Below the pieces are notes generated by a model. That model was not told the DNA's origin, searched no databases, and saw only the letters and a list, made by a program, of their open reading frames with translations. A program made the position numbers and the translations under genes. DNA of 64,000 nucleotides from Lingula anatina (lineage: Eukaryota > Animalia > Brachiopoda): contig CM120649.1 in NCBI GenBank assembly GCA_051362555.1, positions 12,028,001 through 12,092,000 of the forward strand. Direction: 5' to 3'. This document shows positions 15,432 to 60,553 of the stretch, piece after piece (position 1 is the stretch's first letter; each line of letters starts with the position of its first letter).

Positions 15432-17068
15432 ATGGCGTATCAGTACGAAGAGGGACTACCCCCAGAATCACTGAAAAGATACAGAGAGAAGCTGAACCTC
15501 AGCAATTTTTAAGATTTGCCCATACAAGTTTCCAGCAGACTCGTGGGTTAACGATCCAAAGGAATGACCAGACCTGATGTATGGGGATCTTTATTCCTAC
15601 TTGATCAAGTCACCACGTAAGTTATGTTGGTTTTTTTAACAAATAATATAAGTTGGTGCTATGTAAAGTGATAGGAGACTGGTTATTTCATATTTTTGAA
15701 TCCATTTGCCCATTTGTACCACCCAGTTGCATCCACTTCTTTGTCTCCTTTGTTCACTGTGGCTCAGTTGTTCAGCCATGCTCTGTACTTCAAGCACAAG
15801 TGTTAGTCTTCTCAGTTATAATGAAACCACCTAACTACCCCCAATAAGCATATTGTGGAATGATAGCAGACTGTTTAATCCATAAGTTAAAAGTAAATTT
15901 ATCCATTTATACCCAGGATTTACTGTCTTTTAACTATTAAATTACTGCCTTTTTTCTGGTGAATTACTTGGAATTTTTTTATTACAACTTTACCAGATCT
16001 TTGTCTTAGATCAAGGTACATATTAAGGTATTATGGCAAATGAGATATACTTGGATTTCATTACCTGTGATTTGTAAAATACATCAGAGGATGATACTTT
16101 TAAAGATGTTTAATGTTTAAAGAAAAGACATGTAGATTGATTTAGTAACATTTACTAAATTGTGGTTTTTTGTACTGTTTTCACCAAGCCTAATTGTCTT
16201 TTTTTTCCACTCACTTTGCAGGTTAGGGGAGACCTGCTCTCATGTTGGGGCTTTGTTGTTTAAAGTGGAAGCAGCAGTGAGATTAGAAGTGACAACTGCA
16301 ACATGCACAGACCGTCCCTGTGCGTGGAATGATTTTTATGTTGATTCTGTGGAAGCTGATAAGGTTTCAAACAAACAGTTTTATTCAAACAAACGCAAGG
16401 ACAGGGTGAGGAAAAGGCAGAAAACCATTCCACAGGCAACCCCCCAGGCCAAGGCAGCATTTCTTCAGTCCCTGGCATCTTTGGAGACCCCATGCATAGG
16501 ACTTAGTTTATTTAGACAACATAACGCAAGATTTGTTGGACTGGGCCCTACACCAGTGCCAAAGAAACTCCCCCAGTCGTTGAGAGACTTGTACACTATT
16601 GGCAATGAACATTTGAATGTCCCTGCCTTGAAGGAGGCATGAGAGCAAGCTAAGGTGAAAGTGGGCTCACTGACCAACACAGAGGCCAGGTATGTGGAGG
16701 AGGTTACAAAGACTCAGTCCTCATCAGCAGCGTGGCACATGGTCCGTGTAGGGAGAATTTCTGCATCAGTGGCTGGTGATGTGTTGAAGACAGACCAGAG
16801 TAGTCCAGCTCCATCTCTGATTAACAAGGTCACTTCAGCTGGGAAAGTAATCAACAGTGCTCCTATTAGATGGGGACGAGAACATGAAAAGGACGCCCTC
16901 ACCCAATATCAACAATTGTACACTGATCAGAACCACAATGATGTCAGCATCAACAGCTCTGGCCTCAGATTGGACACTCAGCAGCCGTGGCTTGGGGCGT
17001 CACCAGATGCCATTGTAAAATGCACTTGTTGTGGTGAAGGCACTGTAGAAGGCACTTACAATAATTAA
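15432..17068 (+). pseudogene. Decayed transposon ORF: SWIM zinc finger plus YqaJ/lambda-exonuclease domain (ISL2EU/KolobokP-type accessory protein)
   Basis: First exon MAYQYEEGLPPESLKRYREKL..W.NDPK..PDLMYGDLYSYLIKSP with a GT donor near 15617. Then LGETCSHVGALLFKVEAAVR..CTDRPCAWN and TKTQSSSAAWHMVRVGRISAS..WGREHE..SGL..PWLGASPDAIVKCTCCGEGTVE. Stops and a frameshift are present. Confidence 0.8.
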
Positions 17069-17630: not shown

Positions 17631-18736
17631 AATGAAAATGAGGACAGCTTAATTGTCAAAATGAAAACAAAGCATAACCAAACCATAAGAAGCATTAAAT
17701 TCAATTAGGCTAAAAAATATTCAGGAAATAAGAATACGACGATAGGAAGTTAAATTACCAGTTTTGGCAATTCATTTCATGTTCCATTTGTACCTACTAA
17801 TATGTTGAATTAATATGTGTCAAATAAATACACAGAAACAACTGCAATTACCATTAAACATCATCATACCTAATTAAAAGATCACTGCTGCTATGGATAT
17901 ATCTAGCTTTACATGTACAGACATATTTATGAAACATTGCTTGATAAATGCTAAACTTGTGTATGGATTACTCACCACCTTCAGTTTTATATTACTATAA
18001 TATAAAACTATAATTAATTTTTAAGCGACGAAATTTTCAAGACTTTACCGTAACTAAGAGAATTACCAAAAGACATTTGTTAATATTACCTGAAAAATGA
18101 TGTTTAAATGGATTTTCTGCTAGCTTTCTATGCTGTATATACATGGGCCAGGAAAGTAGGTCACATAAGTGGGTTAAATTTCTGACCAAAAATTTAAAGA
18201 AAGGAGCAGTCTAAAGCTCTTTTATGGCTGATCGAGTGATTTATTCAGTTTATCCCTTGGCATGTTGACTTTAATTCAGTTGTATAAGAAACTAGTAGAA
18301 GTGGTTTATATGTGTTACTGGGAATTCACACTCCACTGATGCTGGATTCATATGCACCTTTAAAAATGGCTTCCTGTGAGAATCTGCATGATCTGATTAA
18401 TTTAAAATATATATTATTTAACTGTCTTGTTTATGTAGAATCATAAAAAAATATGAATTTGTCAGCATTTAAAAGTTTCATTTCATTGCAGATTTTGAAA
18501 TACAGTTCGACAGCCAGAACAGACCAATCCCAGTGGAGGAATTTAACTCAAGCCATACACACAGAAAGTACAGTAATGATTTTACTTCTAATTTCCAAAT
18601 GCTTTACTATTTCTAATATTTTACTCTTTGAAGATATCTTTCTTAGACAAAAGACTGTTCTCTCTCTGTTCTCCACTCACTTTTCAATATGTTTGAATCA
18701 ACACAATGAAGCAAAACTCACACTTTTCACTTTCAT

Positions 18737-21620
18737 TTTATTATGTACAGACACAGATGTGTCTGTACATATTGCCATCACCTGCGTCTGTCGTCGCCAT
18801 CACCGATGCCGATGCCGGCGCCGTGCACTTTCCTTGTAAACACGATAAGTGGAAGGCAGTTTTACTTTTTGGCTTAATATTTACAGAGCTGATGAATATT
18901 CATAAAATGCAGGTCAAGTTCGAAAACCAGCATGATCGGGCCATTATTGTAGAAGTTATGCTGTTTTTTCACTTTTCAGCATACATGCAACACTGTAAAC
19001 ACATTTTAAGGAAAACCGCTAGGCTTTTTGTCATGAAACTCACAGGAGTAATCGATCTTACTATAACGCAGGTCAAGTTCGAAAATCGGCAGGATCGGGC
19101 CACTATTTTAGTAGTTATGCTTTTTTATGTACAGACACAGATGTGTCTGTACATATTGCCATCACCTGCGTCTGTCGTCGCCAATGCCGTCGCCAGCGCC
19201 GTGCACTTTCCTTGTAAACACGATAAGTGGAAGGCAGTTTCACTTTTTGGCTTTATATTAACAGAGCTGATGAATATTTATAAAACGCAGGTCAAGTTCG
19301 AAAATCAGCATGATCGGGCCATTATTGTTGAAGTTAAGCTGTTTTTTCACTTTTCAGCATATATGCAACCTTGTAAACACATTTTTAGGAAAACCGTTAG
19401 GCCTGTTGTCATGAAACTCACAGGAGTAATCAATCTTACTAAAACGCAGGTCAAGTTCGAAAATCAGCATGATCGGGCCACTATTTTAGTATTTATGCGG
19501 TTTTTTCATTGTTCAGCATATATGCAACACTGTAAACACAATATAAGAAAAACAGAAAGCCCAATTGTCATTAAACTCACAGGAATGGTCAGTCTTACTA
19601 AAACGCAGGTTGAGTTCGAAAATCAGCATAATCGGGACATTATTTTAGAAGTTATGCGGTTTTTTCACATTTCCTCAGATTTCCTCAGATTTAATTCTTA
19701 GGCATGTTAATAGCCTTATTATTTAAGTAATAAGATACGTAAAAGTGTTTGTTTGACATTTCCTGCATCTTTACAACATTGTTAGTTGATTATGTAAAAA
19801 TGATGGTAAACTTGTTATCATGTATTGTGTAATCAAGTGTCAAAAACGGAAATAAACTCATATCATTGCAGTGTGTCAGATTCAATCATCCACTATGTTC
19901 AGAATCTCAGAATGGAGGAAATTGGACATTTAAAACTGTTCTATTGATACTTTTCTCATCTCATCAATTTTCTTAGTTGGTCATAAAAAAATGGCAGTAA
20001 AATGTTTATTTTGTTTTATGTTTAAAAGGTGTTAAAAATGGAAATAAACCCATTTCAGAAAAGTGCTGTCTTGTTTACATTTTGGCATTTTCAAGATGTG
20101 ACTTTGAAGTTCCATGGGCCTGAAGACCTTTGCTAGTCACATTTTCTGAATATCTGTGATACTAATATTTTATAATTAAAAATTAATGATCATTATGCTG
20201 TTAAACATTATGTAATATTGCATCAAAATTTGAAGAAACCCCTATTTTGGGCACTGCTCCCATGATGACCATTTAAGGAAAATCACGTCACTTACTGTTC
20301 TCAAACTTACAGGAAAGAAACATGGGACTAAAATACAGCTTCAGTAGGCAATGCAGTCCGTTTGGTAACTTTTTCTGGCAGTTAAACAGTTTTTTTTTGT
20401 GAAAATTTAATTTTTCACATGTTGGCATTTTTAAGGTGTGACTTTGAAGTTCCATGATCATGAAGACCTTTGCTTGTCATGTTTTCTGAATGTCCATGTT
20501 ACAAATATTTTATTAATAACATTTGATGGTCATTATGCTGTTAAACATTATGTAATGTTGCATCAAAATTAGAAAAAAACCCTATTTTGGGCACTGCTCC
20601 TATGATGACCATTTAAGGGAAATCATGTCACTTACTGTTCTCAAACTTACAGGAAAGAAACATGGGTCTAACATACAGCTTCAGTAGGCAGTGCAGTCTG
20701 TTTGGTAAATTTTTCTGGCAATTTAACAGTTTTTTTGTGAAAATTTAATTTCTCACTTCTTGGTATTTTCAAGGTGCGACTTAGAACCTCCATGGGCTTG
20801 AAGACCCATGCTAGTCTCATTTTCTGAAAATCCATGACACATATATTTAATTATTAAAAATTGATGTATTATGCTGTTAAGCATTATGTAATGTTGCATC
20901 AAAATAGAAGAAAACACAATTTTTGGTGCTTCTGCCATGATGACCATTATGGGAAAACAGTGCTACTTATGATTGTCAAACTTTTAAAAAAGAAACACAG
21001 GACTAAAATGCAGCCCGAGTTGGAAAAGCAGTCTAATTGGCTTCTTTTTCTGGAAGTTATACATTTTTAGAGTGAAATATTCATTATCTTTTTGGCATAT
21101 TCATTGTGGGACTCGGAGCTCCCATGGACATGAAGCCGGATGGTAATCAAATTTTCTACATGTTCATGCTATTTATAGTCAATAATCAAAAATTAGTGAT
21201 AATTATTCTATAATTTATTATGTAATGTTACATCAAAATTGACAATAATCTTTTTGCACTGCTACTGCAAACATTATGAAAAGAAAACTGTGTTATTTAT
21301 TATTATATTTAACTTATGAGTATGATTTTTAGGATTGGCATGCAGTTCAAATTAGAAAGCCAGGTCAATTGGGTTATCATTTATTATTGAATTTTATGCA
21401 ATTTTGTGTGAAATTTCATTTTTCTCATTCTGGCACTTTCTAAGTATAAACTTGAACTCTGATGGGCCTGAAGCCTTATGCTTTTACTTTCGTTGGTGTT
21501 ACCTGTTGTGCAAAATTAAAATTTGATGTTGACTGTGCAGTTAAACATAATGTATTATTGCATCAGAATTGGTAGTCTCCTATTTTGTGCATTATTGTTT
21601 TGTGTTTTTCTTAAGTTGTG
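18737..21620 (+). repeat. Family B HINE-like composite repeat with 123-bp tandem array and duplicated head
   Basis: Hairpin head at about 18743 and 19127, 123-bp units, and downstream sequence colinear with 1940-2750 + 7680-8334 + 9251-9670. Confidence 0.7.
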
Positions 21621-28098: not shown

Positions 28099-30507
28099 TT
28101 AAACCACGTGATCCTCCTCCTCCTTATCCTTGATCTCTTTTATCCAATCATGGATCTCCTGGATTACTTCTGGTGTCAGTCTGCGTGCGCTGTTCAGAGT
28201 GCCACCTGGAATTAGGATAACGACATGATATGTCAACAGAAGTTTAATTTCAAGGGTACGATTTAACAATATATTTAACTTTAAAACGTTAAGTTGATAC
28301 AAAAGAAATACAGAATGGTTGTCTGATGCACAATAGCAGACGAAAAAAGACAACTGAAACTTGTTCGAATATGTTCCGTTGTACCAGTAGATATACTAGC
28401 ACACAAATTCAATACATAAACCATTCAAAGAAAATGCTATTTACAAACCACTAAAGTATTAAGTTTTGGCCTCAGTTTATAGTTTTTCAAGATGAATTAA
28501 AAGTCAGGTCCTCGTCAACTGTCAGGTTCACCCTTTTGGTATCTTTTTTTACACAGAGTTTCGATACTCGTCTGAGTAATTGGATTCTTTGTCGCTGAGT
28601 TTTCTGGCTGCTGTTTGAATGGATCTTTCTCATTGGTTAGATCAGCCTAACGCGAGTTCGCTAGCATCCCGAATAACGAGAGCATCACTGTCCTGTTGAA
28701 GCTAATAATGTTCCAAACATTGGTGACAATGTGTTATCTTGGCAAAATCGCTGCTCCTAAAATCTTAAAGAAACAATACAAATACACACATAGCAATGAA
28801 GATATACAGTTTATTTACCTGGAATCACCCCCTTTCCGTGAATCCCGACCATCATCCAGTTAAAGTTGTCCCAGGTCCACACGGGAGAGCCGCTCTGCCC
28901 GGCTGCTGTGTCGGCTTCGTAATACAGGCGTGAACGGGAGGCGTACTTCAGTGGGCTGCCTGCGATCCACATAGTGCCTTGACAGAGAAACAAAAGTTAC
29001 AAATGCCCCCTACCGTGCAGTCTTTTAAGATAGAAATATTAAAATAGAAGTATAGGCCTATATATTCTACGTGGGCCTAAATTGTAAATTTATGATTGAA
29101 AGGGATAAAACTGGTCGGGATTGACACTGCCGACTGATATTCGTGACATTTTCATTTTCAGAATTGATTTTGTCTAAAACTGGCCTCTGTCTCTCTGATG
29201 TGTGTGATTCTAAAAACCCAGTTATTATTCCATTACCATTCGGTTTGTCTCCCGGGTATCCGCATATTTCTGCCAATCTCCCTTTCAACGCAGACGATGC
29301 CAAAAGATTATACCCAAAACCAAACGGCTTAGTAGAGATGCTGAATTCTTTTTTAGGAATCAAGATGAGGCCATAATCGTAGGTTGCAGCTTTTCGTTTC
29401 TTGTACAGGTCTGGTACCCGAAGATGAGTTGAATACACGCGGAAATGCCCGAAAGGTGCCGAAGATCCGTCACGTGCTGGATAGACGTCCACGTGATCGA
29501 TGTAACCCCGACGTGAGTGGTGGTAAATATTGTGGGCGCAAGTGAGGATTACACCGGGGGTGTTCCCTACATTGGAAAATGCACCAGTTCCCATGTAGAC
29601 CTCCCCATTTTGAGCGGTCATCTCCAGGTAGCATACCCAACTAAATAGAGAAAAATATGAAACCATGTCTTATCATTCGCATCAAAGCATGGCACAATTA
29701 AACGTGTCGTATATGTAGGTTTAGATCATGCTATACCATACCATTTACAAAGTAAAGCAACCAGGATTGAGATCTATATAACCGGAAGCTTGAAACTGAT
29801 TCTCCGTTTTGTTTCAAAAAGTCAGCCCACCAGGACCCACTTTCGTTCACGTAAAGTGAAGTGTTCTTACAGTATTTTTTTACATCAACATCCAAAACGT
29901 CATCAAATGAAAAGATCTGTATTAAACATTTTATAGCAAATGTAAACAACAAATACATAGAGACTGCCTCAGCTTGTACACTAAGAAATCCTAAAATTGT
30001 GGGAATTTCATCAAGGATAGCAACCCATGGTATCATCACGTGTGTGCTGTATGACGTCACTCACCAGTAAGGTGGAGACTTGCAGGGGGAAACTTGGAGT
30101 CGGTCGTCTGCCAATACAATGGTCTCTGGGATAATACGAGCATCTACGCCCCAGCGTTGAATGAGTGGTGACCCGTACTGAGCTTGCCTCAACAGATCGG
30201 CCGGAACTTCGTCATCAGTGACGTCATCTTCAACAATCGGCGTGAATTTACATGTCGTATACTGAGACTGCTTGGATTGCCACGAATCTGGGACGTCAGT
30301 TGGAGTAGATGAGAACGGCACATTCCTGTGTAACATTTGGAAGCCAACGGGATCGTGCAAGAACACGTCACTCCCGTTGGCGTGGTCTTGGTGGTGCCCA
30401 CGAGCGTGATGATGCCACAGAGGCCATTGACCCGACGATGGACGGGAGTGTCGCAAATGTCGGAAATGGGTTTCGTGTTGTCGTAATTGGGACTTCTCCG
30501 TCGTCAT
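28099..30507 (-). CDS. V8/glutamyl-endopeptidase-like (trypsin-fold) serine protease, 4 coding exons, 370 aa predicted
   Basis: Exons 30507-30065, 29640-29237, 28977-28819 and 28205-28099 have GT-AG junctions with consistent phases (1113 nt). Motifs: ETIVLADDRLQV, GTGAF, ILTCAHN (His), YDYGL (Asp), GYPGDK, DTAAGQSGSPV (Ser), VGIH, NSARRLT..IHDW. Confidence 0.88.
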
Positions 30508-31445
30508 GTTCGACCTATGGAAAAACAAATTGCAATTAAGTCGTTACTGTTATCAACCCTTCATTTATTATTTAGTTGGTTTTTAATTACTAAAATATCC
30601 CCAAGAAGTTTCATGACAGTCGAATAACCTCACAGCACGGACAGTAGGCCTACCTGTATGGAACTTTGCTATGTAGGCCTACTTGTATATCATATTCAGT
30701 TTAAATCCCGTGTCATAGGGCCTACATGTAGGGCCTACATTAAAAAAAACAGGCTAGGTGGCAACCACTGTAAATTAAGAAATGCGTAATGAAGTGATCA
30801 ATCCACGCTATACATATTTCAACCCCACTGCAAGTAAATACCAGTGAAATGAAGCCAATCGTGTAACATTGACAAACATACAAAACGCACGAATTCTTGA
30901 AAGTTGGGAAATTTTCTTTTTTGGAATTCAAAGGAGGTTTGGTATCCCATAATAATATTCGTGCTCACAAATCTGAGGGTCGAGTTCCCTTTTTGAGCAG
31001 ACGACAACATAGTCTTTCAATGATGCTTACATAGGCCTACCTGTACACGGAGTAGGCCCTACTACTTTCACTCTTGTTTGAACAAAACATTTTATTCGAC
31101 AAAGTTGCCAATGACTTTGAAAAGGCCTTAATGATACCCACACTAAAAAGGTAAGTGCCGTAACAAGCGTAATGGGATCTGTGGTGATATGGACGTTTTA
31201 AAGACAGTTTTCTCTCTCAATAGAACCCGTTACCAGCCAATATTTCGTCTGTTTGCAGTCAGACTTCATCAGGGAATGAGATTGTGATAGAAACCAGAGG
31301 GGATGATAGGTTGTCACATCTATCACAACCCCATTCCCTGATGAAGTCTTACTGCAAGCAGACGAAATATTAGCTGGTAAGACCAGACAAATATAAAGAG
31401 CTATAGACAAAAGAATCTTCACAAGTGATGATTGGATTTTCAATG

Positions 31446-34014: not shown

Positions 34015-34785
34015 CGTCACGTGGTCGGGGGTTAACAAAATTACTCGGAAGAGCAGGCGATAACGGTAAATTTCGATAATTCATGGCAACCGGCATCGTT
34101 TTGTTCCGCGAGATCATGCTCAGCGCTTGCTCTGCAGGTGAGCAGTTGTGGCATCGGTTGCACGTGTGAAAAATATATTTTGAAATGTTTTGAGACCTCC
34201 CGATTCGTTAGAAATAAGCCGATAGCAGCACTCCAAGGTAGAACATACGAAACCTGATCTTACTGAAGACGGGTCAGAAACCTGTGTGCTATAAACTATC
34301 TGTGTGCGCCACCTTGATGCCGTTTGATTCTATTTCACTGCAGTTAGCAAATCGCTCCTACTTAACTCCAGTTTGATACTGGGAAGAATAGGCATCACAT
34401 CATATTTTGAGCCCCATTCCATCTGCGTTGTAATTCTGCCATTCACAATATCTGTTACTTGTACATGTACACTAAGATCTAATAAACGGTATATTAGATT
34501 TTAGTTGTACATCACGTACGTACCCAGCGTATATAGCTTAGACCCGAAAGATATTTAAAACTGAGCCGTGCTTTATTCAAACATACATAAAGTACATATA
34601 CATTAATTAACGGCAACAGTATATCCCTATTTGCTTTTAAGTCGCCATGACAAAAGCCCTTATAAATAACTTTTAATTTAAATGACAAGGTTTGTATAAA
34701 AATGCATATTCTGTAAAACTTAAGGACCAGTTCGGAATGAATTTTGTCGACCTAGCTATTGCGCACCAACACCACGCGGGAACAA

Positions 34786-34959
34786 GGGGGCGTCTCGATA
34801 GTCCGAAGGTTCATTGGTCCGAAGGTTCATTGGTCCGAAAAGTGGTAACATTTTCATCGATTTTTTAATCAAGGGTTCATTGGTCCGAAGGTTCTATAGT
34901 GAACATTCGGACCAATGAACTTTCGGACTATTGAACCTTCGGACTATCGCTACGGCCCC
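34786..34959. mobile_element. Young MITE (copy 1)
   Basis: Built from 15-bp ggttcattggtccga repeats in inverted arrangement; flanking direct repeat of 8-10 bp (gggaacaa); almost identical to 52715-52888. Confidence 0.85.
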
Positions 34960-35111
34960 GGGAACAAGATGAGACTTTTCAGTCTGTTAACTGGTTGCAT
35001 TCACCAAGAGATCCCGTGGAGAAGGTGTGCATAAGCTAGGTCGACAGATTTAAATAAGAAAGGCCCTTTAGCTTGTTACTTGTTCATTGCAGCTCCATTT
35101 CCGATTTAGAT

Positions 35112-36020
35112 ATGGCTACTATGGACAACCTGGATCTGATTGAAATCAAGAATCTCCGCCCGCGAGTACAGATCGGTATAAGTCCTCACGAGCTGGGCAA
35201 AAAACAGGAAGTAGTCATTAACCTGACCCTCGGCGTGGACATTCGGCGTGCCGCCGAGACAGACGACATCAACGACACGCTCAATTACAAAAATGTCACC
35301 AAAATGGTCCTCGAATACGCAGAATCAACCGATATCAATCTGGTAGAAAAACTTGCCGAAGATATCGCCAAAATTTGCATAGTTTGCTTCCGGGCACCGT
35401 GGGTACAAGTTGCCGCTGAGAAACCCCACGCCCTCAGGTTCACCGACTCTGTCGGGGTGAAAATTAGAAGGACATCGAAGGATTACCCACATCCCATTGT
35501 ATTTGTGTCACTTGGATCGAACATTAATCCGCTGCAAAACCTGAAAGCGGCCGTGGAGATCCTGAAAAGACGCACCACGCTTCTGAAGACGTCGAAAGTC
35601 TTCCTTACACCGCCTCAACTGGACACGAACCAGCCGCCGTTCCATAACATGGCTCTAAAACTTATACCGTGTGGAGATCCGGACACATTTAGGGGACTTC
35701 TAAAAGAAATTGAAGAAAATCTCTTACGAGTGCGTGACCCCTTGAATAAAAATGGGCCCCGTACCATTGATTTAGATATTGCACTTTGGGGTGACGTCAT
35801 TTTTGATAATGTTGACGTCACTAGTTTAGAGGGTAAGAGCGCACACCGGATTCCGGATCCCGATATTTTGAAGTTCGCCCACACGGTTGTCCCTCTTGCC
35901 GATGTATCCCCGGATTCGATTCATCCGGTTGTGAAGAAAACATTGCAAGAAATTGCTGTAGATGTTACCGGGCAGAGAAACTATTTGGATATATTTGAAA
36001 TTGTAGATTGCACGTTTTAA
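35112..36020 (+). CDS. folBK: Bifunctional dihydroneopterin aldolase/epimerase (FolB/FolX) - 6-hydroxymethyl-7,8-dihydropterin pyrophosphokinase (FolK/HPPK) fusion, 302 aa
   Basis: N-domain: IEIKNLR..IGISPHE..KQEVVINL..DDINDTLNY..LVEKLA..EKPHALRFTDSVGV (T-fold Glu/Tyr/Glu/Lys retained). C-domain: VFVSLGSNI, FHNMA, LKEIE..RVR, KNGPRTIDLDI, IPDP..VVPLADV. The ORF is uninterrupted. Confidence 0.93.
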   Translation: MATMDNLDLIEIKNLRPRVQIGISPHELGKKQEVVINLTLGVDIRRAAETDDINDTLNYKNVTKMVLEYAESTDINLVEKLAEDIAKICIVCFRAPWVQVAAEKPHALRFTDSVGVKIRRTSKDYPHPIVFVSLGSNINPLQNLKAAVEILKRRTTLLKTSKVFLTPPQLDTNQPPFHNMALKLIPCGDPDTFRGLLKEIEENLLRVRDPLNKNGPRTIDLDIALWGDVIFDNVDVTSLEGKSAHRIPDPDILKFAHTVVPLADVSPDSIHPVVKKTLQEIAVDVTGQRNYLDIFEIVDCTF

Positions 36021-36253: not shown

Positions 36254-36375
36254 GACTATGACGCCGTTTTGGGCATAGACGAAGTGTAAGGGGGAGGGGA
36301 CTATCTCCCTTCCTTCAACGGGCAGTATATGGCAGCCTCGCACGTCACTGATTATCTGTAAGCAGTAGGGAAAGA
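36254..36375 (+). pseudogene. Degenerate 5' fragment of the NAT16-like gene
   Basis: gactatgacgccgttttgggcatagacgaagtgtaagggggaggggactatctccc... aligns by eye to about 43387-43534, with a TAC>TAA stop. Confidence 0.85.
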
Positions 36376-39962: not shown

Positions 39963-40713
39963 CAAAATAACAGATCGGGGAAAAAACCTACTTTACGCTC
40001 TGGCACTCGGCAAACAGAACGGCCTCTGAAGCGAAGTTATTAATTTATAAATTTCTCAGGAAAACAGATTTGCCCTGTAAATTGCAGGTAAGACGTCACG
40101 TGGTCGGGGGTTGACAAGAAAAGGCGTCACATCATCTTTTTTAGCCTGATCCCATTTGCGTTGTAACTCTACGATTCACAATATCGGTTACTTGCACATC
40201 ATGTATCCAGCGTATAGCTTAGACCCGAAAGAACTGAGCCGTGATTTATTCAAACATACATAAAGTACATATACATTTTTAGTATTAATTCCAGCGGCAA
40301 TGATCTATCCCTGTTTGCTTTTAAGTCGCCATGACAAAAACCCATAAAAATGATTTTTTTATTTAAATGACCAGAATTGTATAATAAACGCATATGTAGT
40401 CTGTAAAACTTAAGGACCCATTTAGAATGAATTTTGTCGACGTAGCTATTGCGCACCAACACCACGCAGGCACTCTCACTAAATGCAATCAGATTAACAG
40501 ACCAACACGCCCCCTGGCGTTTAGTAGAATATAGAAAAGCTGGCGTTTATGTGAGTACATTGGAAACAAAAGGAGACGTTTTAGTCTGTTAACTGATTGC
40601 ATTCAACAAGAGATCCCGTGGAGAAGGCGTGCAAAAGCTAGGTAGACGGATTTAAATGAGAAAGATCCTTTAGCTTGTTACTTATTCATTGCAGTTCCAT
40701 TTCCGATTTAGAT

Positions 40714-41432
40714 ATGGCTACTATGGACAACCTGGATCTGATTGAAATCAAGAATCTCCGCCCGAGAATGCAGATCGGCATAAGTCCTCACGAGCTGGGC
40801 AAGAAACAGGAAGTGGTCATTAACTTGACCCTCGGCGTTGACATTCGGCGTGCCGCCGAGACAGACGACATCAAAGACACGCTTAATTACAAAAGTGTCA
40901 CCAAAAAGATCCTTGAATACGCAGAATCAACCGATATCTACCTGGTTGAAAAACTTGCCGAAGATATTGCCAAAATTTGCATAGTTTGCTTCCGGGTACC
41001 GTGGGTACAAGTGGCCGTTGAGAAACCCCACGCCCTCAGGTTCTGCGACTCTGTCGGGGTGAAAATTAGAAGAACTTCAAAGGATTACCCACAATCCAGC
41101 GGCCATGGAGATCCTGAAAAAACGCACCACGCTTCTGAAGACGTCAAAAGTCTTCCTAGGCCTCACACTGCCTCAACTGGACACGAACCAGCCACCGTAT
41201 CATAATATGGCTGTAAAACTGATACCGTACGGAGATCCGGACACATGTAAGAGACTTCTGAAAGAAATTGGAGGAAATCCCTACGAGTGCGTGACCCCTT
41301 GAAAAAAAATGTGCCCCATACCATCCATTTAGATATTGCACTTTGGGGTGACGTCGTTTTTGATACTAGTGACGCCACTAAATTAGAGGCTAATAGGACA
41401 CACCGGATTCCGGATCCTGATATTTTGAAGTT
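40714..41432 (+). pseudogene. Duplicate folBK: intact FolB/FolX domain ORF (40714-41205) and a disrupted FolK domain
   Basis: Colinear with 35112-35876. A net 50-bp deletion after ..SKDYP removes FVSLGSNI and shifts the frame; there are further indels and a truncation after IPDPDILKF. Confidence 0.88.
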
Positions 41433-41727
41433 CCATCAATACTTGGTAAAAACATTTCCCTTAATGTTAGCACGTACGGTTATTTTTTAACTCTTCGAAA
41501 TAAGTATGTTTCTGAACTTTTTTGGACGAGTGTGTATACTCGATGTCTCATTCCCATCCAGTCCATTATCAGCATAACATAGTGATGCTTTACGACGCTG
41601 AAATTGCTACGGCTGTGAATTGGAACTCGAAAACATTTTATGTAGCCATTCGAAAGTCTTCAAAAGCAAGCCTAAATGGTATTTTTTAATTAAATATAAC
41701 CACATTGATCACACACACGTGCGTGCG

Positions 41728-43358: not shown

Positions 43359-44765
43359 ATGTCCCTAGTTATGAACGAATTAATACTACGCCAAGCCACG
43401 CCAGCGGACTATGACGCCGTTCTGGGCATAGACGAAGTGTACGGGGGTGGGGACTATCTCCCGTCCTTCTACGGGCAGTATATGGCAGCCTCGCACGTCA
43501 CTGGTTATCTGGCAGAACAGGCAGTAGGGAAAGAAGACAGGGATCCGGTACAAGAGGCTGGAGATCAGCTGGCTGAACAGGCAGAAAGAGAAATGGGCGT
43601 GGGCGTTAATCTGGTACAGCGGGCGGGAGATCAGCCAACAAACCCGCCTGTTCGGCGACTGGCGGAAAAGGCAGGTGAGATGAAAATTGCGGAGAAGGCA
43701 GAAGACCCAGGAGTGAAACTAAGAGAGAAGGTAGAGGGAAAACAAGAAATGGCATCGACGAAAAAGAATTACAATGGCAAGAACAACGTCGTTGCCTTCT
43801 GCCTTGCGCACCTTACCGATGATGAGACTACGTTTATTTTGCGGGCAGCGCGCGTGGCACCGTCCCGTCAAGGGCAGGGAATCTTGAGGAAGCTAAAAGG
43901 TTTTGCGATGAAGAAAGAAAGGGTGGCCCACCCAAACCTCGAAAAAACGAGACTGACAATAGGTTATCCCATTGGTGCAGTGGAGAAAATCCCGAACGGG
44001 TTCAAAGAACTTTTGAGAAGGGAAATATATTGTTTTTGTTTCAAACCGGCCCGTATTGAAGGGAAAATGCAAATGAACAGGGGTAACCAGACCATGTTGC
44101 TCAAAAATATAGACGGGGATGTACTTAAGGAGTTGCTGGGTACGCCAATGCTCAGCTGTGATTTGTTTCCGAAAGGGGTGGCCATCATAAATTGGATTCC
44201 TTACTCTATCTCTGCCAATAACGCCCTTCTCATCGAAACTGAAAGTGCAATTTATGTTTCATACGGCGACAAAAATGCTTCAGAAACTGCAAGAACCGAT
44301 GAAATTCCATCTGAGGACACTGATACGGTAAGAAATGGTCCTGATGAAAGTGCCTCAACAAACCCAGGGACCATGGCCAGCAATGTAGTATTCGCTGAAT
44401 CATCCAACACTATTGCTTTGAAACACTTCAAGGAAAATGCCAAAAGATGTCCACAAGTCCCCATGTGTCTAAGTGCCGTGACATCTTTCACGTGCCCGCT
44501 GGGACTTCGTGTTGGTGTGGACATATACTATTCGCAAGGAGTTGACACTGCCGCCATCTTGGGACACGTTGTAAGCCACGTCTCTGTTACAGCGTCCAAG
44601 GCAGCCAGATGTGGGATTGATTTTGTGCATTTTGAGGTCTTTGTAGAGGAGTCCCATTTAGGGGAAGCCATCAAAGTTGCACTGCTAGAGATGGGATTGA
44701 CACCAAGTATTGCTGTACGAAATGCAAGTGAGCAGAACCTTGTGCTTTTGGAGGCAAGCTTGTAA
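43359..44765 (+). CDS. GNAT N-acetyltransferase, NAT16/histidine N-acetyltransferase-like, single coding exon, 468 aa
   Basis: LRQATPADYDAVLGIDEVYGGGDYLPSFY N-terminus, VVAF..L.DD.TT..LRAARVAPSRQGQGI (acetyl-CoA motif A), LFP.G..IINWIPY. Confidence 0.8.
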   Translation: MSLVMNELILRQATPADYDAVLGIDEVYGGGDYLPSFYGQYMAASHVTGYLAEQAVGKEDRDPVQEAGDQLAEQAEREMGVGVNLVQRAGDQPTNPPVRRLAEKAGEMKIAEKAEDPGVKLREKVEGKQEMASTKKNYNGKNNVVAFCLAHLTDDETTFILRAARVAPSRQGQGILRKLKGFAMKKERVAHPNLEKTRLTIGYPIGAVEKIPNGFKELLRREIYCFCFKPARIEGKMQMNRGNQTMLLKNIDGDVLKELLGTPMLSCDLFPKGVAIINWIPYSISANNALLIETESAIYVSYGDKNASETARTDEIPSEDTDTVRNGPDESASTNPGTMASNVVFAESSNTIALKHFKENAKRCPQVPMCLSAVTSFTCPLGLRVGVDIYYSQGVDTAAILGHVVSHVSVTASKAARCGIDFVHFEVFVEESHLGEAIKVALLEMGLTPSIAVRNASEQNLVLLEASL

Positions 44766-45889: not shown

Positions 45890-46172
45890 AATGTCCAGAT
45901 ATCAACATGCCTATATCCAATGAGCAATTCTACTGCTCACAAAAATAGTCCAGATTTCCCATGAGCAAATATACTGTCTTAGCAAATGTCCAGATTTCCC
46001 ATGAGCAAATCTGTTGCTCTTACAAATATGCTGATTTCCAATGAGCAAATATACTGCTCAGAGAAACTGCCCAGATTTTCTGTGAGCAAGTCTGTTGCTC
46101 ACAGAAATTGCCCAGTGACATTATCTGCTGCTCACAAGAATTGTCCAGATTTCCCGTGAGCAAATCTACTGT
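45890..46172 (-). repeat. ~40-bp tandem repeat spanning the GPALPP1 stop codon and proximal 3'UTR
   Basis: About 6-7 diverged units of gtccagatttcccatgagcaaatctactgctcacaa (+ strand). Confidence 0.8.
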
Positions 46173-47377
46173 TAAGTTGCTGTGACTTTTTGATCAGTTG
46201 CTTTCTCTTGGCATCATCAAATCTATTGACCTGCAGATCATCTTCCCTGCTGAACTCTCTTCTTTCCTTGGGTTTATCTTCTTCTTCCTTCTGAAAAATA
46301 TAATTAATTAGTGATGTCCTACTGTTTGCTGTATGCTCCTCTAAGAAGAGTTAACTGAAAAACCTTTGGCAAAAATATGGACACAGTCATTTGATCATTA
46401 TTATAGCACCTTTGTTTAATTTCCCATGAACTAATGCTTGGCCAAGACTAATTAAGACTGGTAATAAAATCAGGTGGGTCAACTTTGAAGGATTTCTCAC
46501 TCACAGCAAGGTGAGGCATGAAATGAAAGTTGTTCCTGAGATTAAAGTTTCCTGTACACTTTGTACATATCAGCAATTTAAACCAAAATCAGTGACATTT
46601 TAGCTGATGATATCAAGCACCTATTAGTAAATTAAATAAGAGACTATGTTTGTTAAAACTTGAATTGTGCACATGACTTATAAAGTGGTCAACTTGTAAA
46701 ACCTAGCACACAAAGCACATTAGGTTACCACCATGTATTTTAGTGCCATTCGCAAATGGTTTATGAAGAATTTATAACTGCCATAGAAAATCACCTTCTT
46801 CTTCTTTAACTTCTTTGAATGCATGTCCATCAGTGACTCTTTTCTTTGTGTTTCCTGTAAAAGGTGAAAACATATATTGATTAATTATAACTGCACATTG
46901 ATATTTTTAATATTTTAAAAATTGTATTTTAATGTATTAAAAGATGACTAGGCCATATCTTTACCTTGACATATATGTCTACTGCTTGACTGGAAGAAAT
47001 ATCTTATCAAATTTCACATAAAGTGGGTCTATTTCCCAGGCTATGTATACATGATAAATGACACACTGAACTTGCTCTAAGATCAGTCTGTGTAAAAACC
47101 CCTTAAGCCTACTGAATCTTCCACAAACCAGTCAAAGGACCAATTCCCAACAAAACTATTGTTCTACCTAGATGGATCCAACTATGCAGGGACTCCCCTT
47201 GAATGCAATTAGATTACCAGATTAACACGCCTCTTCTTGTTTCTGACATATCTGTATAATTACCAGCTTTTCTGCATTCTACTCAACACAAGGAGGGTTG
47301 ATTGCATTGAATGAGAGTCCCTGCAGTGTTGGATCCATCTAAGTAGAACAATGGTTTCAGGAATGAGATTTGTTTGT

Positions 47378-47408
<31 letters not shown>

Positions 47409-48078
47409 GGGGTCCCCAAAAAATTGACAATGTTGTGCAATTATCCCAGAAAAGTTTCTAAAAAAAAAAAAAAAATTTAAAAAATGAAATTAAACAGGCA
47501 ATGTAATATTTATCATAAAAGGAGGTCTCAAAGATTTCAACCTTTTCCACATACTGACGCACTCACATTGTACTCCTGTAGCTGTGCAGTTATCTTCCTG
47601 TCTCTTTCAGAAATAAAGACCTCTTCATGTTGGCGCTTACTGCCACGCCCCTCCTGCATTTCCTGCATAACAATAAATAAAAAGATAAGTTAATAAATAT
47701 ATATAAACTGGGGTGGGGCTAGCAATTTTTCCGTTAAGCCAAATTGCTACTTTTTCATCGCTTTTTTGTCCAAATTGTTCAAATTTGACTAAAATAAGTC
47801 AAATCAACCCCACTTTGTTTAGCCAATTTCAGTCAGTTTTAGCATTTGGCTAAATTGGCAAGTGATAGCGCTACCCCAGATAAATAAATACAAACTGACT
47901 TGTCAAAGTTCAGAATTCAAACAGAATTCCATGTGCTGCATATATGCTTGAAACATTGAACGTTTTATGGAGACTTATCAATTTTTTTTTTTGTTCATTA
48001 AATCAGATCAGAATAATGAATAAAAAAAATCAAAAAAATTATCAGATAAATAAATGAACATGTGTGTGGGTGGGTACA

Positions 48079-48141
<63 letters not shown>

Positions 48142-49667
48142 GCTGGCTGACATATAAACAACAACTTCACCTTTGCCTTTCTCTCTCTATCAGCTGGAGT
48201 ATCAGTCCATGCAGACCTGTCTCCCTTCTCTGGCAAAGGCTGAGACCTGAACTTCCTTGGTCCAAGGCCGAGATTGACCCCCATGTCAGGGGGCAGTTCA
48301 GTCATCCAGGACTCCCTCTCAGTGACCACTGGGGTCTCTATCTCATCCTGGAATTTATCATTTATATATAATAACAAACACTCACGTCAGCACCAACATT
48401 AGAGTTGTGATGAATGTGTCAGTTGTGACATGTAAAGAGTAGCAGAGGGGGTCACAATCAGTTGTCAGTTGTTTTACAAAATGTAAATAGAATAGAATCG
48501 AATAGAATATCTAAAATGAGAATGTTCAAAATACCTTACATAAAAAAGAGACAAGTGCGTGAAAACACAAATATCAAAGCATAGAAACTCACATATTTCA
48601 AAGACTGCATTTCTAGATAACAAAGCCTAATTTTCACATAAAGCCAATTACAAGTAAGATAATCAATTATATTTTCTAAATGTTTTAAACTTCTTCAGAT
48701 GTCAGTTAATTCAACTGAGCAGAAATCTTTTCACCTCCAATTGAATAAGATCAGAAAATAACAAATCATAACAAAAGGCTGCCAACTGTACCTAATTAAA
48801 CACATAATTTATTCCCAACTAATATAATTTTTTTAATGTATACATACTGTAACAAACAGCATAAAATGTCCCCTAATTGAATATCTTCAACAAATCTTGT
48901 GGAACAAGCTGAGATTACATTTTTAACAAGAACCTCTGTGTAAAAATTTCCAGTCCCCACTGTTTGAATTATGTGGAGTCTTCTGCCCAGATTATAAAAT
49001 AATGAAATAAAAATATCATGATAAAATAATGTTACCTCTCCCAGGAGTTTTTTCTTCATCTTCTCTGCTCTCCTCTCAACCTCTGCAGCAACTGACTCCT
49101 CATGCGTGGGACCTGATGGCGGCATGGGGCCTAAATAATGATGATGAATAAATAAGACTGGGTTCCCATACCTAGAACAATCTAATAGGATTGATCCATC
49201 CCCGAGGGGTTTCTTGCTTAACTGCTTTCAGCTTAAGCAGCTTAGACATCTGGCATGCCTACTGAAGCTGCTAAACGATAAAATATTACCCCCTGGCAGC
49301 TTCAGTATGTGTGACAGACATTTAAGCTGCTTAAGTTGATTGCAATTTAGTGAGAATCCCATTACAGATACTTTACGTGCCGACAACTGGCCGATCATTG
49401 AGCATTCATTCTGATACAAAATCAATGCTCGTGCCTCCTAAATAAGACCACAGCGATGCCAAATTTCATGGTCGCAGAAAGGACGCAGAAAGGACGCCGT
49501 CCAGTGTAAAGGGGATATTAAGCAGTAATTTTCCTTTAATCAACAGATAATATTGGAATGATTAAATGGTAAATTACGTACATTTTGCATAGCCAAATAA
49601 GAATGGGTTTTAGCATCTGACTGTCTAAAGCCTACAACATTTAATCAAACCCTGCATTACCAATGAC

Positions 49668-49703
<36 letters not shown>

Positions 49704-50249
49704 TCTGTCTGCATCATCTTCTGTATCCTGACTAAACCCTGGAGGTAGAGATGGCCCAACAATCCCAGGTCGCCTATTAAAGCCAGGGGGCAAGGCTGGA
49801 CCTATGGAAAATCCTCTGTCCTCACTGCCAGAGCTAGACTTAAAACCCGGAGGCAAGGCTGGACCTATGGCAGATCCTCTGTCCTCACTGCTAGAGCTAG
49901 GCTTAAAGCCAGGAGGCAAGGCTGGACCTATGGCAGATCCTCTGTCCTCACTGCTAGAGCTAGACTTAAAGCCAGGTGGTAGAGCAGGTCCAATATCTGA
50001 CACCCTCTCCTCTGTGTCAGATTTAAACCCAGGGGGTAACACTGGTCCAATACTATCCATTGAAGCCCTATCTTCAGTATTTCCAGTTTTAAACCCTGGT
50101 GGCAGCATAGGCCCAATAACTGAAGATTTAAATGAAGATCCATTTATGGCTCCTTCCTTTGCCTTCATGCCCTCAGAGTCACCAGAATCTCTCCCAGAAC
50201 TCTCCTTGGTGAACCCTGGTGGGAGGGGAGGCCCATATTCATCTGACAT
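46132..50249 (-). CDS. GPALPP1: GPALPP motifs-containing protein 1, 6 coding exons, 391 aa predicted
   Basis: Exons 50249-49661, 49130-49036, 48347-48171, 47662-47567, 46854-46795 and 46290-46132, all GT-AG and in phase. Repeated GPALPPGF, RESWMTELPP, DRSAWTDTPADRERK, SLMDMH, RREFSREDDL..LNSRFAHG..QFL*. Confidence 0.93.
47159..47351. mobile_element. Intronic MITE / inverted repeat
   Basis: ttgttctacctagatggatccaac..tgcagggactc and its reverse complement gagtccctgca..gttggatccatctaagtagaacaa. Confidence 0.7.
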
Positions 50250-52594: not shown

Positions 52595-52980
52595 TTAAAG
52601 AGATAACAACTGTTCTTAAAAAAAACTATAGGCCTACTGCTAACAATTAATTCCTTTTTTTTCTAAAAAGTTTGGTTTTTTTAACCGCAGTTTTGGTGGG
52701 AGAATAGAATCTATGGGGGCGTCTCGATAGTCCGAAGGTTCATTGGTCCGAAGGTTCATTGGTCCGAAAAGTGGTAACATTTTCATCGATTTTTTAATCA
52801 AGGGTTCATTGGTCCGAAGGTTCTATAGTGAACATTCGGACCAATGAACCTTCGGACTATTGAACCTTCGGACTATCGCTACGGCCCTCGAATCTATTAT
52901 ATTTCCATGAGTTGTTAACTTGGTAACATTGTGTTTATTTTGAAATATGGATCTCTTACGAAAAGTTGTTATCCCTTTAA
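52595..52980. mobile_element. Kolobok-like MITE (TTAA ends) carrying the nested young MITE
   Basis: ttaaagagataacaact ... agttgttatcccttta a inverted ends. Confidence 0.55.
52715..52888. mobile_element. Young MITE (copy 2)
   Basis: Near-identical to 34786-34959; flanked by the direct repeat gaatctat. Confidence 0.85.
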
Positions 52981-56945: not shown

Positions 56946-57951
56946 ATGAGGATGAGTGAAAAAACAAGTGACCAATCTCAGATCAAAGGGGGGAGTTCCC
57001 CTAGTCATGGAAGCAGTGAACAGTTGGCCAAGGACCCCCAGGTTAATGGCCATGAAAGCGCAAAGGAAGATGGTGATAAGGATTTAAAGGGAAATGTTAA
57101 AGAAACACCACAAGGCAATGTCCACGATGGGCAAGGAGACTGGCAAGACAAAATGAATGAAGCAGAGAGTGGCAGTGGCCAGAAAGTGCCACGGGGAAAT
57201 GGAGCGGGGGACTCACACAGCAATGGAGATCCAGCTGGATTGGATGGAGCAGACAGCAAAGTCAGCAGTGCCTGCCTGGATCACGGGGAATCCCCAACCA
57301 AAACCAAGGCGGTAAAAGAGAATGTAGTCTCCCATGGCAAGGCTAGTGCTACCAAAGGGCTTTCAAATGGAAATTCTGGGAAGACTGGAAAGTCTTCCAG
57401 TGAGAAAAGTCTCCCACTGGAGGTGTCGACTCCAGTTGAGCCAGGCTTCTCCCTGGAGACCTCGCCTCGGAGCCACCGTAACCGTCACCGTGAAGGTAGA
57501 GGGGAGGGGACCCAAAAGGTTCACTCGCCCAGAGGGTACCCACCACACCCACCTCATGCCCAAGGGCCACAGCACACCCATCCTCCAGCCCAGGGGCCAC
57601 AAGCACCACCACACCAGACACCACCTCATCACCACCAATCTGACCCTTCAGCATCTCCCCGTGGGGGTCACTCACCCAGTGGCCACTCCCCTCGGTCAAC
57701 TTCTCGTGGAGGGAGTCCACAGAGGGAAAATGGTGCCACCGGTACAATGTCCACTGGTGCTCCCGTACCTCCCTCCAGCAGCGCCGCCATGGCTGGTGGT
57801 ACGGGAACTGTGCCTGCGGGTACCAGCCTCAGCAGTGGCAGTGGCCAGCAGGGACTGACACTGGGTCCGGGACAGCACGTGGTACATGTGCATGTCAATC
57901 CTGGGGAGACGTTCTCTGTGCGTGTTGGGGACCAAATTCAGCACATCCAAG
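56946..57951 (+). CDS. FNDC3: First coding exon of a fibronectin type-III domain-containing protein 3 (FNDC3A/B-like); the gene continues beyond the window
   Basis: Long G/S/P/H-rich ORF ending QHVVHVHVNPGETFSVRVGDQIQHIQG, resembling the conserved N-terminal FNDC3 motif (VQVNPGExFTI..QCIxG), directly followed by G|GTAAGT. An acceptor ctctttctAG ends at 56830. Confidence 0.8.
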
Positions 57952-60553
57952 GTAAGTGGAATGAGGTTAATTTAGATGTTGGGAATGTGTACACCCCTGA
58001 AAGTTAAGGATGATATGTCCTTAATTTGGTCATAAATGCATGTACATAGTTCATCTTGGGGGTTAACATACCATTTATGTTTGAAGGGGTATGTCCTAGG
58101 TATTAAGGTTGACTGTGCCTGCAATACTAAAGATATTTGTCACTATCAGGGGTGAATTTGCCCAGAATGATAGTTTCTGATTGTCAAATCCGTCTTCCCA
58201 GACTTAAATCTTTGTCACTTTGTAATTTGTGGCTAAAAGAAGTTGGTGTAACACAAGGAAACTGTATGTATTTTGGTTTTCCTTTTTGCTTAGTCATTTG
58301 GGATTTTTTTTATAACTCTAGACAAAAGTGATATGTTCACAAATTATTACATTTTGTTTTGGCTTATTCAATTAAGTTTCTAAAAATAAGAAAGAGGCTT
58401 AATAGCTGATGCCCAGTTGAATCTATCTCTGCTTCTGTGTCAGTTATTTTAAGTCCTTGCTCATTTTTTTTAAGGAAAGCATAATCCATGTTCAGTACAT
58501 TTCATTTTCTTATATTTATTTCTATTAAACTTAGTAAAATTTGCATTATTAGGTTTTATATCCATATAATTTGTATCACTTATTTCATGTTAGTTCAAAA
58601 CCTTGCATTACTATGAGTCTGTAGTATAACATATTGATTTTCATTTAACATTTCATATCTTTATTTTGCAATATATCTTTATGTTTTCAGACTATGAGTA
58701 ATGTTTTTGTATGCCTTCGTCTCAAACTGCCTTATTTTTATGGAAATTGAAACAAGGTCTTGTTTTTGTGAAGATATTTATAATTAATCTTAGATTCTAC
58801 CTGCAGGTGTAAATTGTTCCAGATCAGTCATAGATTAAAAAATGTTTCATGATTCAATTCTTCACAAAAGGAGCACCTGTCATATCATTTTTAGAAAATG
58901 TTTATCATAAAAGAAATACAGAACTTACAGACTGCTATCTTCAAATTCATTTTTTCTTTTTTTTTTTTTCAGTGTTAAATTATGGTTTAACTCATGCAAA
59001 AAAAAAAAAAAAAAAGAAATGCTTGGCTTCAAATGAACTTGTTTATGTATTGATACATTTTCGCAGAGTGGATGTTTTTATTTTAGCTTGAAAACTAATG
59101 ACCGTAATTCCTATCCAGTGCTTATATCAGCTCATGTTGCAGCTAGATTTCTTGGCTGGCTACAGGTTATCGTGACATAGGATTTAAGAAAACACTTTTT
59201 TCAATCCAGTTGATAAAGACAATATAAAATATGGTTGAAGTATTCATTACCAACTTGAAGAACATGTGGAGTGAGATTGACCACCTGTTGGAGTTCTATT
59301 CTTCCAATGTTAATTTATACTTTTCTCACTTTAACTGTTTTTTTTTTTCATCTGCAAATGATGATTTTAACAAATTTCCAATATTTCAGACTGTATATAT
59401 GAAAAAAACAAACCAAATTTCAGCTTTGATAAAAAAAATTAGCAGTTATGTTTTTAATTGCATTTCCTGGACTGCCATTTTGATTTAGCTTTCAAATTTT
59501 GCTTTTTGAACTGAAGCAAGACACTGATAAGAACCTGTCTCTTTAAATTTGTTATGTCAACAAACAGAATGATTGAAAAGGAATGTATTTATTTATTCAA
59601 CTTTGTCCCTTAAAGTTCTCTTTGTGATGTTCTGGGAAGACTTGGCCTAGTTAAAGCAATGTGAGTTCTTATTGAAATTTTACTGGGATTGCTGTCATCT
59701 TTTTTTTCTGCTATAGGTATATAATTTACTTTGTGGCTAGTCAAAGATATATTGTCTAAAACAACAACAACAAAAAAAAAAATGCAAGTCATAACCAGGA
59801 TGTTATTAATTCGTTCCACTCCCATTTGAATAACAACAGGATGATATTTTTAAAAGATTTGTTTGATAGAAGTTTTCTGAGAATGGTGTCATTTGCAACT
59901 ATCTTTTTTTCTTGAGTTTCAGTTTATACAGGTGATAGTTATGATTACTACTAGTGTCATAGTGTCTTGAAACAGTGTCTGTGCTATTTATGTGTGTATT
60001 GGCATGAATCAAATGCTGTCACGTCTTTAGACAGCAATGTGCAGATTCACACACTTGATGAATTGCTTTAAATTGCTCAGAGGCAGGTGTACCTAAAATC
60101 GTGACCATTTTGGCAAAGCTCATTGAAAAGAGAACAATGATGAGAATAAATGAAACTGAAACTAATTATTGTTCCTAAGATTAAGGTTTTTTTTTTATTT
60201 ATGATTAGTGATTTGGATTTGAGTCCATTTTTTCATGAGTACATAAATATCTAATTCTTTAATTAAAAGCCAAAAGAGATGTGTTGAATGCATTCTAGTT
60301 AATTAGAGCACACATCTGTGTTTGTGTGTCATTATGCCTGCATGATATGGGTGGGTGGAAATTATGTATTGTCCTGTCAACAGGTATACTTCACTGGCAG
60401 AGCTTGAGAATATTATTAAGGAGAGAGACAAGAGGTGGGGGTGGAGAAATCTGTCACTTGGCCTGGAGAAACCAAGAAGGTGTGTACATGGAGAGTGGGG
60501 GCTGCGATTATTTTTGAATGAGCATCATTGTGTATGTCAGGAATTCTGTTTGC

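Follow-up and report, generated by a model that had tools for sequence, protein, structure and literature searches.

A Lingula anatina host gene that fuses a FolX-like domain to a variant HPPK domain and is likely independent of folP

The 64-kb window of the Lingula anatina genome analysed here (the whole stretch of DNA presented above) contains a host gene at positions 35112–36020 whose product joins a FolX-like domain to a variant of the HPPK domain. Judging from its residues, its trees, and the gene contexts of its relatives, we lean modestly towards the view that this gene has a likely bacterial, Chloroflexota-related ancestry and likely serves a folP-independent branch leading to a free tetrahydropterin, e.g. 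tetrahydromonapterin, and not to folate. A bacterial-type folB-folK gene in an animal is not in itself a discovery, because an amphioxus case is already on record. What matters is the reinterpretation of the pathway, as the folate label currently attached to the fusion is probably wrong.

Gene structure, host context, and tandem paralogue

The open reading frame at 35112–36020 (+) runs without interruption over 302 aa and encodes a FolB-family and an HPPK domain, as the sequence-only reading had stated. Immediately upstream of the ATG lies a sequence resembling a splice acceptor, from which splicing in the 5' UTR is predicted. The Pfam profiles FolB (PF02152; aa 10–119, E = 2e-29) and HPPK (PF01288; aa 131–267, E = 2e-21) both match above their curated cut-offs. 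Using profiles, residues, and a PDB match, the FolX-like T-fold domain was delimited to aa 1–125 (35112–35486, +), and the variant HPPK (FolK2-type) domain was delimited to aa 126–302 (35487–36020, +) using profiles, residues, and the structural model. This AlphaFold2 model of the 302-aa fusion, built from a 68-sequence input, has a pLDDT of 93 and supersedes an earlier model (10 sequences, pLDDT 65); it matches HPPK structures with a Z score of 23.9 (rmsd 1.7) and DHNA structures with a Z score of 19.7 (rmsd 1.1).

Self-comparison of the window revealed a 173-bp MITE-like element (34787–34959; 34778–34968 with its 9-bp target-site duplication) that ends 152 bp upstream of the ATG of the fusion and has a second copy at 52715–52887, with 99.4% identity between the two; comparison of the two gene copies showed no matching element upstream of the paralogue described below. 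The spliced GPALPP1-like gene that had been noted about 10 kb away is also present (46150–50249, minus strand): it was identified by profile and splice signals, with DUF3752 exons at 46150–46299 and 48045–48386, and serves as a context marker. The earlier argument from context against contamination therefore stands, and the fusion is genuine host DNA. The description of the surroundings as a set of transposons is borne out in part: a YqaJ-type ORF fragment, the MITE, and many interspersed repeats are present, but Pfam matched no transposase among the 83 stop-to-stop frames scanned (82 of the 121 listed frames and one GPALPP1 exon). DHPS and pteridine reductase genes were likewise not found in the 64-kb window.

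Several other features were observed in the window. Two adjoining ORF pieces at 16160–17068 are probably a decayed mobile element; a YqaJ-like exonuclease domain is encoded by the second piece. ORF pieces at 29067–30528 (−) resemble trypsin-like serine protease exons by eye and have no Pfam match. A tandem repeat of ~157 bp, found at 18706–19701 and 1205–1926 with more copies in the window, generates a spurious 331-aa frame, and a large low-complexity exon at 56946–58007 (+), again with no Pfam match, belongs to a further host gene.

The diverged local paralogue reported earlier was recovered, sharing 85% DNA identity with the fusion over 923 bp (40562–41433). This tandem paralogue (40714–41433, +) retains an intact FolX-like half, and its HPPK half is frameshifted, having lost segments of 35, 15, and 1 bp and gained one of 6 bp. 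Its ORF runs from the ATG at 40714 to 41205, i.e. 163 aa, and its FolX score exceeds that of the intact copy (108.9 versus 100.7 bits); a database protein of 163 aa (P0222) is 93% identical to the N-domain of the fusion. The two copies differ by a dS of ~0.19, with dN/dS values of 0.18 in the N-domain and 0.70 in the HPPK half (Fisher p = 0.02–0.04). The low N-domain value fits continued selection on the N-domain of the paralogue, and 40714–41205 may thus represent a working single-domain FolX-like gene that arose by fission. The duplicated block consists of the fusion and a histidine N-acetyltransferase-like neighbour, in tandem. In the first copy, the fusion was kept and the neighbour was reduced to a remnant, which was detected by window self-comparison and marks the block (36254–36375, +). 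In the second copy, the neighbour was kept as an intact, intronless ORF of 468 aa (43359–44765, +; weak Hisat_C match, below the cut-off) and the HPPK half was broken. A plasmid search with the 43359–44765 gene gave no match.

Domain identity and ancestry

The N-domain belongs to the PF02152 T-fold family by profile score, fold, and its Glu/Tyr/Glu/Lys active-site residues (E27, Y59, E79, and K104, corresponding to E21/Y53/E73/K98 of E. coli FolB). Its top-scoring NCBIfam family is FolX (PRK11245), at 100.7 bits against an equivalog cut-off of 152 bits, and its score for folB (TIGR00525), 74.1 bits, lies barely above the cut-off of 72.15 bits. The closest PDB match by sequence is E. coli FolX (1b9l). 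FolX-type residues (R16, R18, H106, L108, R109, D112, and S113) occupy 7 of the 7 discriminating positions checked (R14, R16, H104, L106, R107, D110, and S111 in E. coli FolX), the check being confined to positions at which the two E. coli proteins, FolX and FolB, have different residues and the query has that of FolX. In the N-domain tree, the fusion family has E. coli FolX as its sister (96/76) and lies apart from gammaproteobacterial FolB, firmicute FolB, and the fungal domains. The identities to E. coli FolX (37%) and FolB (31%) are similar. Taken as sequence evidence, these features suggest that the N-domain leans to FolX, a triphosphate epimerase. FolX and FolB are described as paralogues differing in function (PMC5041015), and because FolX also cleaves pterins, albeit slowly (PMC1971073), there is still room for a combination of aldolase and kinase chemistry.

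The C-terminal domain scores over the folK cut-off (TIGR01498) and belongs to the HPPK fold (PF01288, TIGR01498) by profile, fold, and the equivalents of E. coli D95/D97, E77, and R82/R84/R92. Residues N137, Q174, N179, E201, R206, R208, R217, D220, and D222 are the equivalents of E. coli N10, Q50, N55, E77, R82, R84, R92, D95, and D97, respectively, and thus both aspartates that bind Mg are kept, as are three arginines and the greater part of the pterin pocket. N214, D249, P250, F255, and H257 are found at the positions of W89, H115, Y116, R121, and F123, respectively; the replacements at W89, H115, R121, and F123 are common to the whole fusion family in the alignment, and the canonical FolK motif formed by these four residues is absent. 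The sequence-only reading had regarded the DHNA-family and HPPK motifs as complete, which holds for the DHNA-family catalytic residues and for the metal and arginine residues of HPPK but fails at these five canonical positions. In canonical HPPK, H115, Y116, and W89 are ligands of the gamma-phosphate. A simulation model has R121 in contact with this phosphate as well (PMC5879566), F123 stacks on the pterin, and W89 touches it (PMC3261883).

Related variants were seen in other proteins. Two Lingula paralogues (P0033 and P0122) have a degenerate N-domain lacking the E27/Y59/K104 equivalents and an HPPK domain with His at position 115 but also at position 92; a division of labour among copies is possible, as judged from their residues. 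Gammaproteobacterial FolK proteins encoded beside folB in Aeromonas (L170) and Halomonas (L175) also lack H115 and R121 and group in the tree with FolK of the Vibrio monapterin cluster. Bacterial variant HPPK domains are also found fused to diaminopimelate decarboxylase (P0165 and P0166) or to a Nudix hydrolase (P0114 and P0284).

The top named homologues of the fusion are Branchiostoma proteins (43–52% identity), Chloroflexota fusions (~50%), and Lingula proteins (47%). In the tree, the branch next to the fusion protein is the Lingula pair (100/97), and the Branchiostoma/Lingula folB-folK orthologues form a supported clade (99/94 and 97/88) that is absent from the N-domain-only tree. Bilaterian copies, coral and protist triple fusions, and Aggregatilineales/Phototrophicales-type fusions together form a 100/100 clade with a three-way split, which sits inside the bacterial variant sequences and apart from FOL1. 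In the N-domain tree, Chloroflexota rows are nested among the animal rows, a placement that would by itself allow either direction between these two groups and that was treated as low signal.

A transfer specific to this animal is contradicted by the single clade of Lingula and amphioxus orthologues and by the relatives in corals and unicellular eukaryotes; the distribution suggests that the acquisition from bacteria was likely ancient and was followed by patchy loss. One transfer into the cnidarian–bilaterian ancestor, which early trees supported (animals 94–98), was abandoned once the trees included triple fusions from outside animals, because the corals then group with these triple fusions (98/98). 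With them included, the AU test comes near to rejecting animal monophyly (p = 0.06), and the grouping of every eukaryote-type row into one clade is neither demonstrated nor rejected (p = 0.42). A single acquisition before animals, after which bilaterians lost the reductase, and separate transfers appear equally plausible, each falling a little short of probable, and some other origin is improbable. A literature search found nothing on horizontal transfer of folate genes in Lingula or brachiopods.

Uncoupling from folP and the proposed role

Bacterial loci encoding the fusion were retrieved by an alignment query, a single-protein scan of bacterial genomes having given none. At 80 genome loci, mostly from Chloroflexota, the neighbours include folE at 71, a folM-like gene at 15, and folP at none; at 80 metagenome loci, the corresponding numbers are 34, 39 (including coral-type exons), and 0. 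No folP was identified in the 18 Chloroflexota genomes carrying the fusion, which are assemblies of unreported completeness, whereas controls gave a match in 13 of 14. The sole Pterin_bind matches in the 18 genomes are ORFs of ~1,060–1,260 aa, and none of the 18 has an HPPK other than the fusion. The 20 genomes searched also include two planctomycetes, each of which contains folP and two HPPKs. FolC was found over the cut-off in 19 of the 20 genomes. Pteridine reductase was over the cut-off in none of the 20, and in the closest Chloroflexota folM is not adjacent to the fusion, both of which count against a monapterin product, although the genome-wide reductase search carried little information. 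Phenylalanine hydroxylase, considered as the enzyme that would use the cofactor in the donor group, was not found (0 of 20 genomes), which together with the presence of FolC also speaks against such a product.

A broader survey covered 81 genomes of the class Anaerolineae, for which completeness values are not reported. In this set, folP was found in 32 genomes, all of which contain a high-scoring (canonical) HPPK, and two genomes have a high-scoring HPPK with no folP match. Low-scoring HPPKs were found in 19 genomes, i.e. nine that also have a high-scoring HPPK and folP and 10 that have a low-scoring HPPK only, and none of these 10 has folP. Sequences were retrieved for 32 of the 35 high-scoring HPPK places and for 18 of the 19 low-scoring ones; all 32 of the former and none of the 18 latter have H115. 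The neighbours at the 18 low-scoring places include folE (15), folM-like genes (10), FolX/B (17), and folP (0), counts that are not strictly comparable with those of the high-scoring places because of their flanks (~1.5 versus 2.5 kb, shorter at 30 high-scoring places). Since genomes with folP always keep a canonical-scoring FolK, the variant seems not to replace FolK. These data indicate that the fusion/variant-HPPK family is uncoupled from folP in bacteria. Chloroflexota are among the phyla that often lack FolK or FolP (PMC13408713; for further background, see PMC6335563).

The recurring partner of the variant pair is a pteridine reductase. A protein of the coral Oculina patagonica and two further proteins consist of FolB-family, HPPK, and SDR domains, and the Oculina SDR scores over the pteridine-reductase cut-off (339 versus 288 bits) and bears TGX3RXG, a motif known from PTR1/FolM (PMC1971073). 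Coral-type copies occur in 11 of the 80 metagenome loci, mostly at 65–83% identity and in exon-like pieces, with GT-AG junctions at 8 of 9 gaps in the six loci checked. A wider search recovered the same three-domain protein from Sphaeroforma arctica, an MMETSP transcript, and other records; in the non-animal triple fusions, Lys stands in for the Arg of this motif and the equivalent of Y53 is missing, which again counts against monapterin. Bacterial HPPK-SDR fusions also exist. In Vibrio fortis, folK, folX, folE, and folM form one cluster, and the encoded FolK, which lacks H115 and R121, occupies its own branch of the tree (same-clade support, 46/41). Literature searches found nothing joining coral, pteridine reductase, dihydroneopterin, and horizontal transfer and nothing on a folX-folK-folE-folM operon of Vibrio.

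Animals have GTP cyclohydrolase I for tetrahydrobiopterin. In the route that we slightly favour, this host enzyme, whose gene is not in the 64-kb window, would provide dihydroneopterin triphosphate, which the oligomeric N-domain would epimerise at 2' to dihydromonapterin triphosphate in the manner of E. coli FolX, as its residues and tree position suggest. The variant HPPK would then alter in some way how the pterin side chain is phosphorylated, and the product would be reduced by a pteridine reductase, which corals and protists carry as a fused domain and for which this animal presumably has a separate enzyme or a substitute. Each enzymatic step of this route is one that we infer. FolX and FolM define the tetrahydromonapterin route in E. 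coli and Pseudomonas (PMC3405516), and a 2026 review marks one step of that route with the label 'unidentified phosphatase' (PMC13259868), for which we consider the variant HPPK a concrete candidate. A bolder and distinctly speculative extension is that the variant HPPK is this missing dephosphorylating enzyme and that corals, some protists, amphioxus, and Lingula-like animals share a second tetrahydropterin pathway obtained from Chloroflexota-like bacteria, perhaps before animals arose. This extension is suggested because gene context puts the variant HPPK in the phosphatase slot. The pterin triphosphate itself would be bound where the ligands of the ATP gamma-phosphate are lost, and folE, FolX, variant HPPK, and FolM would therefore make up a complete pathway. 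Against it, the Nudix-fused variant HPPKs point to another possible source of dephosphorylation, and the closest bacteria have no clear reductase.

Two alternatives concern where the gene comes from. Bacterial contamination or a chimeric assembly join could account for the intronless coding region and its high CpG ratio (1.15 versus 0.06 in a GPALPP1 exon), but its probability is negligible given the host MITE and target-site duplication upstream, flanking repeats that recur in other parts of the window, a tandem paralogue that has already diverged at synonymous sites, closest relatives that are animal genes, coral-type relatives with GT-AG introns, and a window without bacterial neighbour genes such as folE. 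It is also very unlikely that the gene is a vertical remnant of eukaryotic FOL1 (folB-folB-folK-folP), truncated and never transferred. Although the opisthokont ancestor already had FOL1, a gene that readily undergoes fission (PMC4224340), FOL1-type proteins are only 25–30% identical to the fusion and show H115/R121/F123 in 10 of the 10 representatives covering the motif, whereas the fusion shares the derived D/F/H motif with bacteria and forms the 100/100 clade with Chloroflexota apart from FOL1. The bacterial ancestry proposed earlier is thus upheld: AU tests reject a grouping with FOL1 at p = 0.006, 0.042, and 0.048, the latter two marginally, and a fourth test, with one long-branch FOL1 row, does not reject it (p = 0.16). 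For the separate domains, whose trees had been called for, the strongest rejection (p = 0.006) comes from the HPPK domain, and the N-domain adjoins E. coli FolX.

Two further alternatives accept the transfer and concern the chemistry. Partial folate synthesis, in which the fusion performs two consecutive steps of the folate branch or a symbiont FolP completes the pathway, fits the domain order and family names, and for amphioxus it has been proposed that the pathway is incomplete or that an alternative gene takes the place of folP (PMC4224340). We nevertheless consider it unlikely, although the sequence-only reading had raised it, because the family is uncoupled from folP in bacteria too (0 of 160 loci and 0 of 18 genomes), the pyrophosphorylated intermediate would presumably be a poor product for export, and the third fused domain in corals is a reductase and not DHPS. 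A stronger competitor, though still well short of probable, is canonical chemistry with another sink, i.e. an aldolase, whose substrate might be the triphosphate itself, and a true pyrophosphokinase that feed an unrecognised non-FolP enzyme or a non-folate pterin conjugate. It draws on the four retained aldolase/epimerase catalytic residues and the retained metal, arginine, and pocket residues of HPPK (D95/D97, E77, R82/R84/R92, N10, N55, and Q50 equivalents), on superposition of the model on HPPK ternary complexes at 1.5–1.7 Å, on the fusion as sole HPPK in 18 of 18 Chloroflexota genomes, most with FolC, and on the Nudix domains fused to some variant HPPKs (P0284 and P0114), which could supply dephosphorylation. 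It is opposed by the retention of a canonical-scoring FolK in 32 of 32 folP genomes, even in the nine that have the variant too, by the replacement of H115, R121, W89, and F123 throughout the family, and by pteridine reductase as the recurring partner. Pterin pigment or cofactor metabolism, another option listed earlier, is the one favoured by the evidence.

If the fusion indeed serves a folP-independent tetrahydropterin branch, animals would keep what looks like half a folate pathway because the family never needed folP. Genes of this class that are named folK or FOL1-like likely make no folate, which affects genome-based calls of folate prototrophy, and on the same reading corals, amphioxus, and brachiopods are expected to contain tetrahydropterins other than tetrahydrobiopterin.

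Comparison with known systems

The fusion had been described as having the SulD-type architecture. It shares domain order with Streptococcus pneumoniae SulD (PDB 2cg8), its best full-length structural match, but the identity is ~23%, compared with ~50% for Chloroflexota fusions, and a SulD-type Fusobacterium fusion keeps H115/R121/F123 and falls outside the fusion family; the fusion is therefore not of the SulD type. SulD serves folate synthesis together with DHPS. Fungal FOL1 (folB-folB-folK-folP), after which database entries are called 'folic acid synthesis protein FOL1-like', forms a separate 100/100 clade with a canonical HPPK motif and DHPS, which the fusion lacks. Duplicated 'FolK2' genes, i.e. 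second folK genes, some of them clustered with folM, have been described (PMC1971073); the excerpted text of that source gives neither a motif definition nor a function, whereas the variant described here is defined by loss of H115 and uncoupling from folP.

The nearest precedent is Branchiostoma floridae folB-folK, which Maguire et al. (2014) reported on a native contig, without folP, as a probable prokaryote-derived transfer; the gene was reported as transcribed in B. belcheri, and questionable folB-folK copies were noted in Nematostella and Trichoplax (PMC4224340). Such a gene in an animal is thus not new, as both the transfer and the 'no folP' inference were published for amphioxus (PMC4224340). 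The Lingula copies are also already annotated, and a bacterial-type folB-folK in an animal is a known phenomenon. The amphioxus gene belongs to the same orthologous clade, is ~50% identical, and has the same two domains, prokaryote-like character, and absence of folP. It was treated as a folate-pathway fragment near Planctomyces, and the FolX-like domain, the variant HPPK, the Chloroflexota sister group, and the reductase-fused relatives do not figure in the excerpted account (PMC4224340). A B. belcheri entry (P0175, 811 aa) that joins an oxidoreductase-like N-terminus to the fusion is probably a merged gene model.

The FolX-FolM route of E. coli and Pseudomonas, as excerpted, differs in having no HPPK-fold domain, whereas the Lingula protein has one fused to an N-domain that scores below the FolX cut-off, and no reductase was found at the Lingula locus; the two share FolX-type residues, linkage to folE and folM-like genes, and independence from folP (PMC3405516, PMC13259868).
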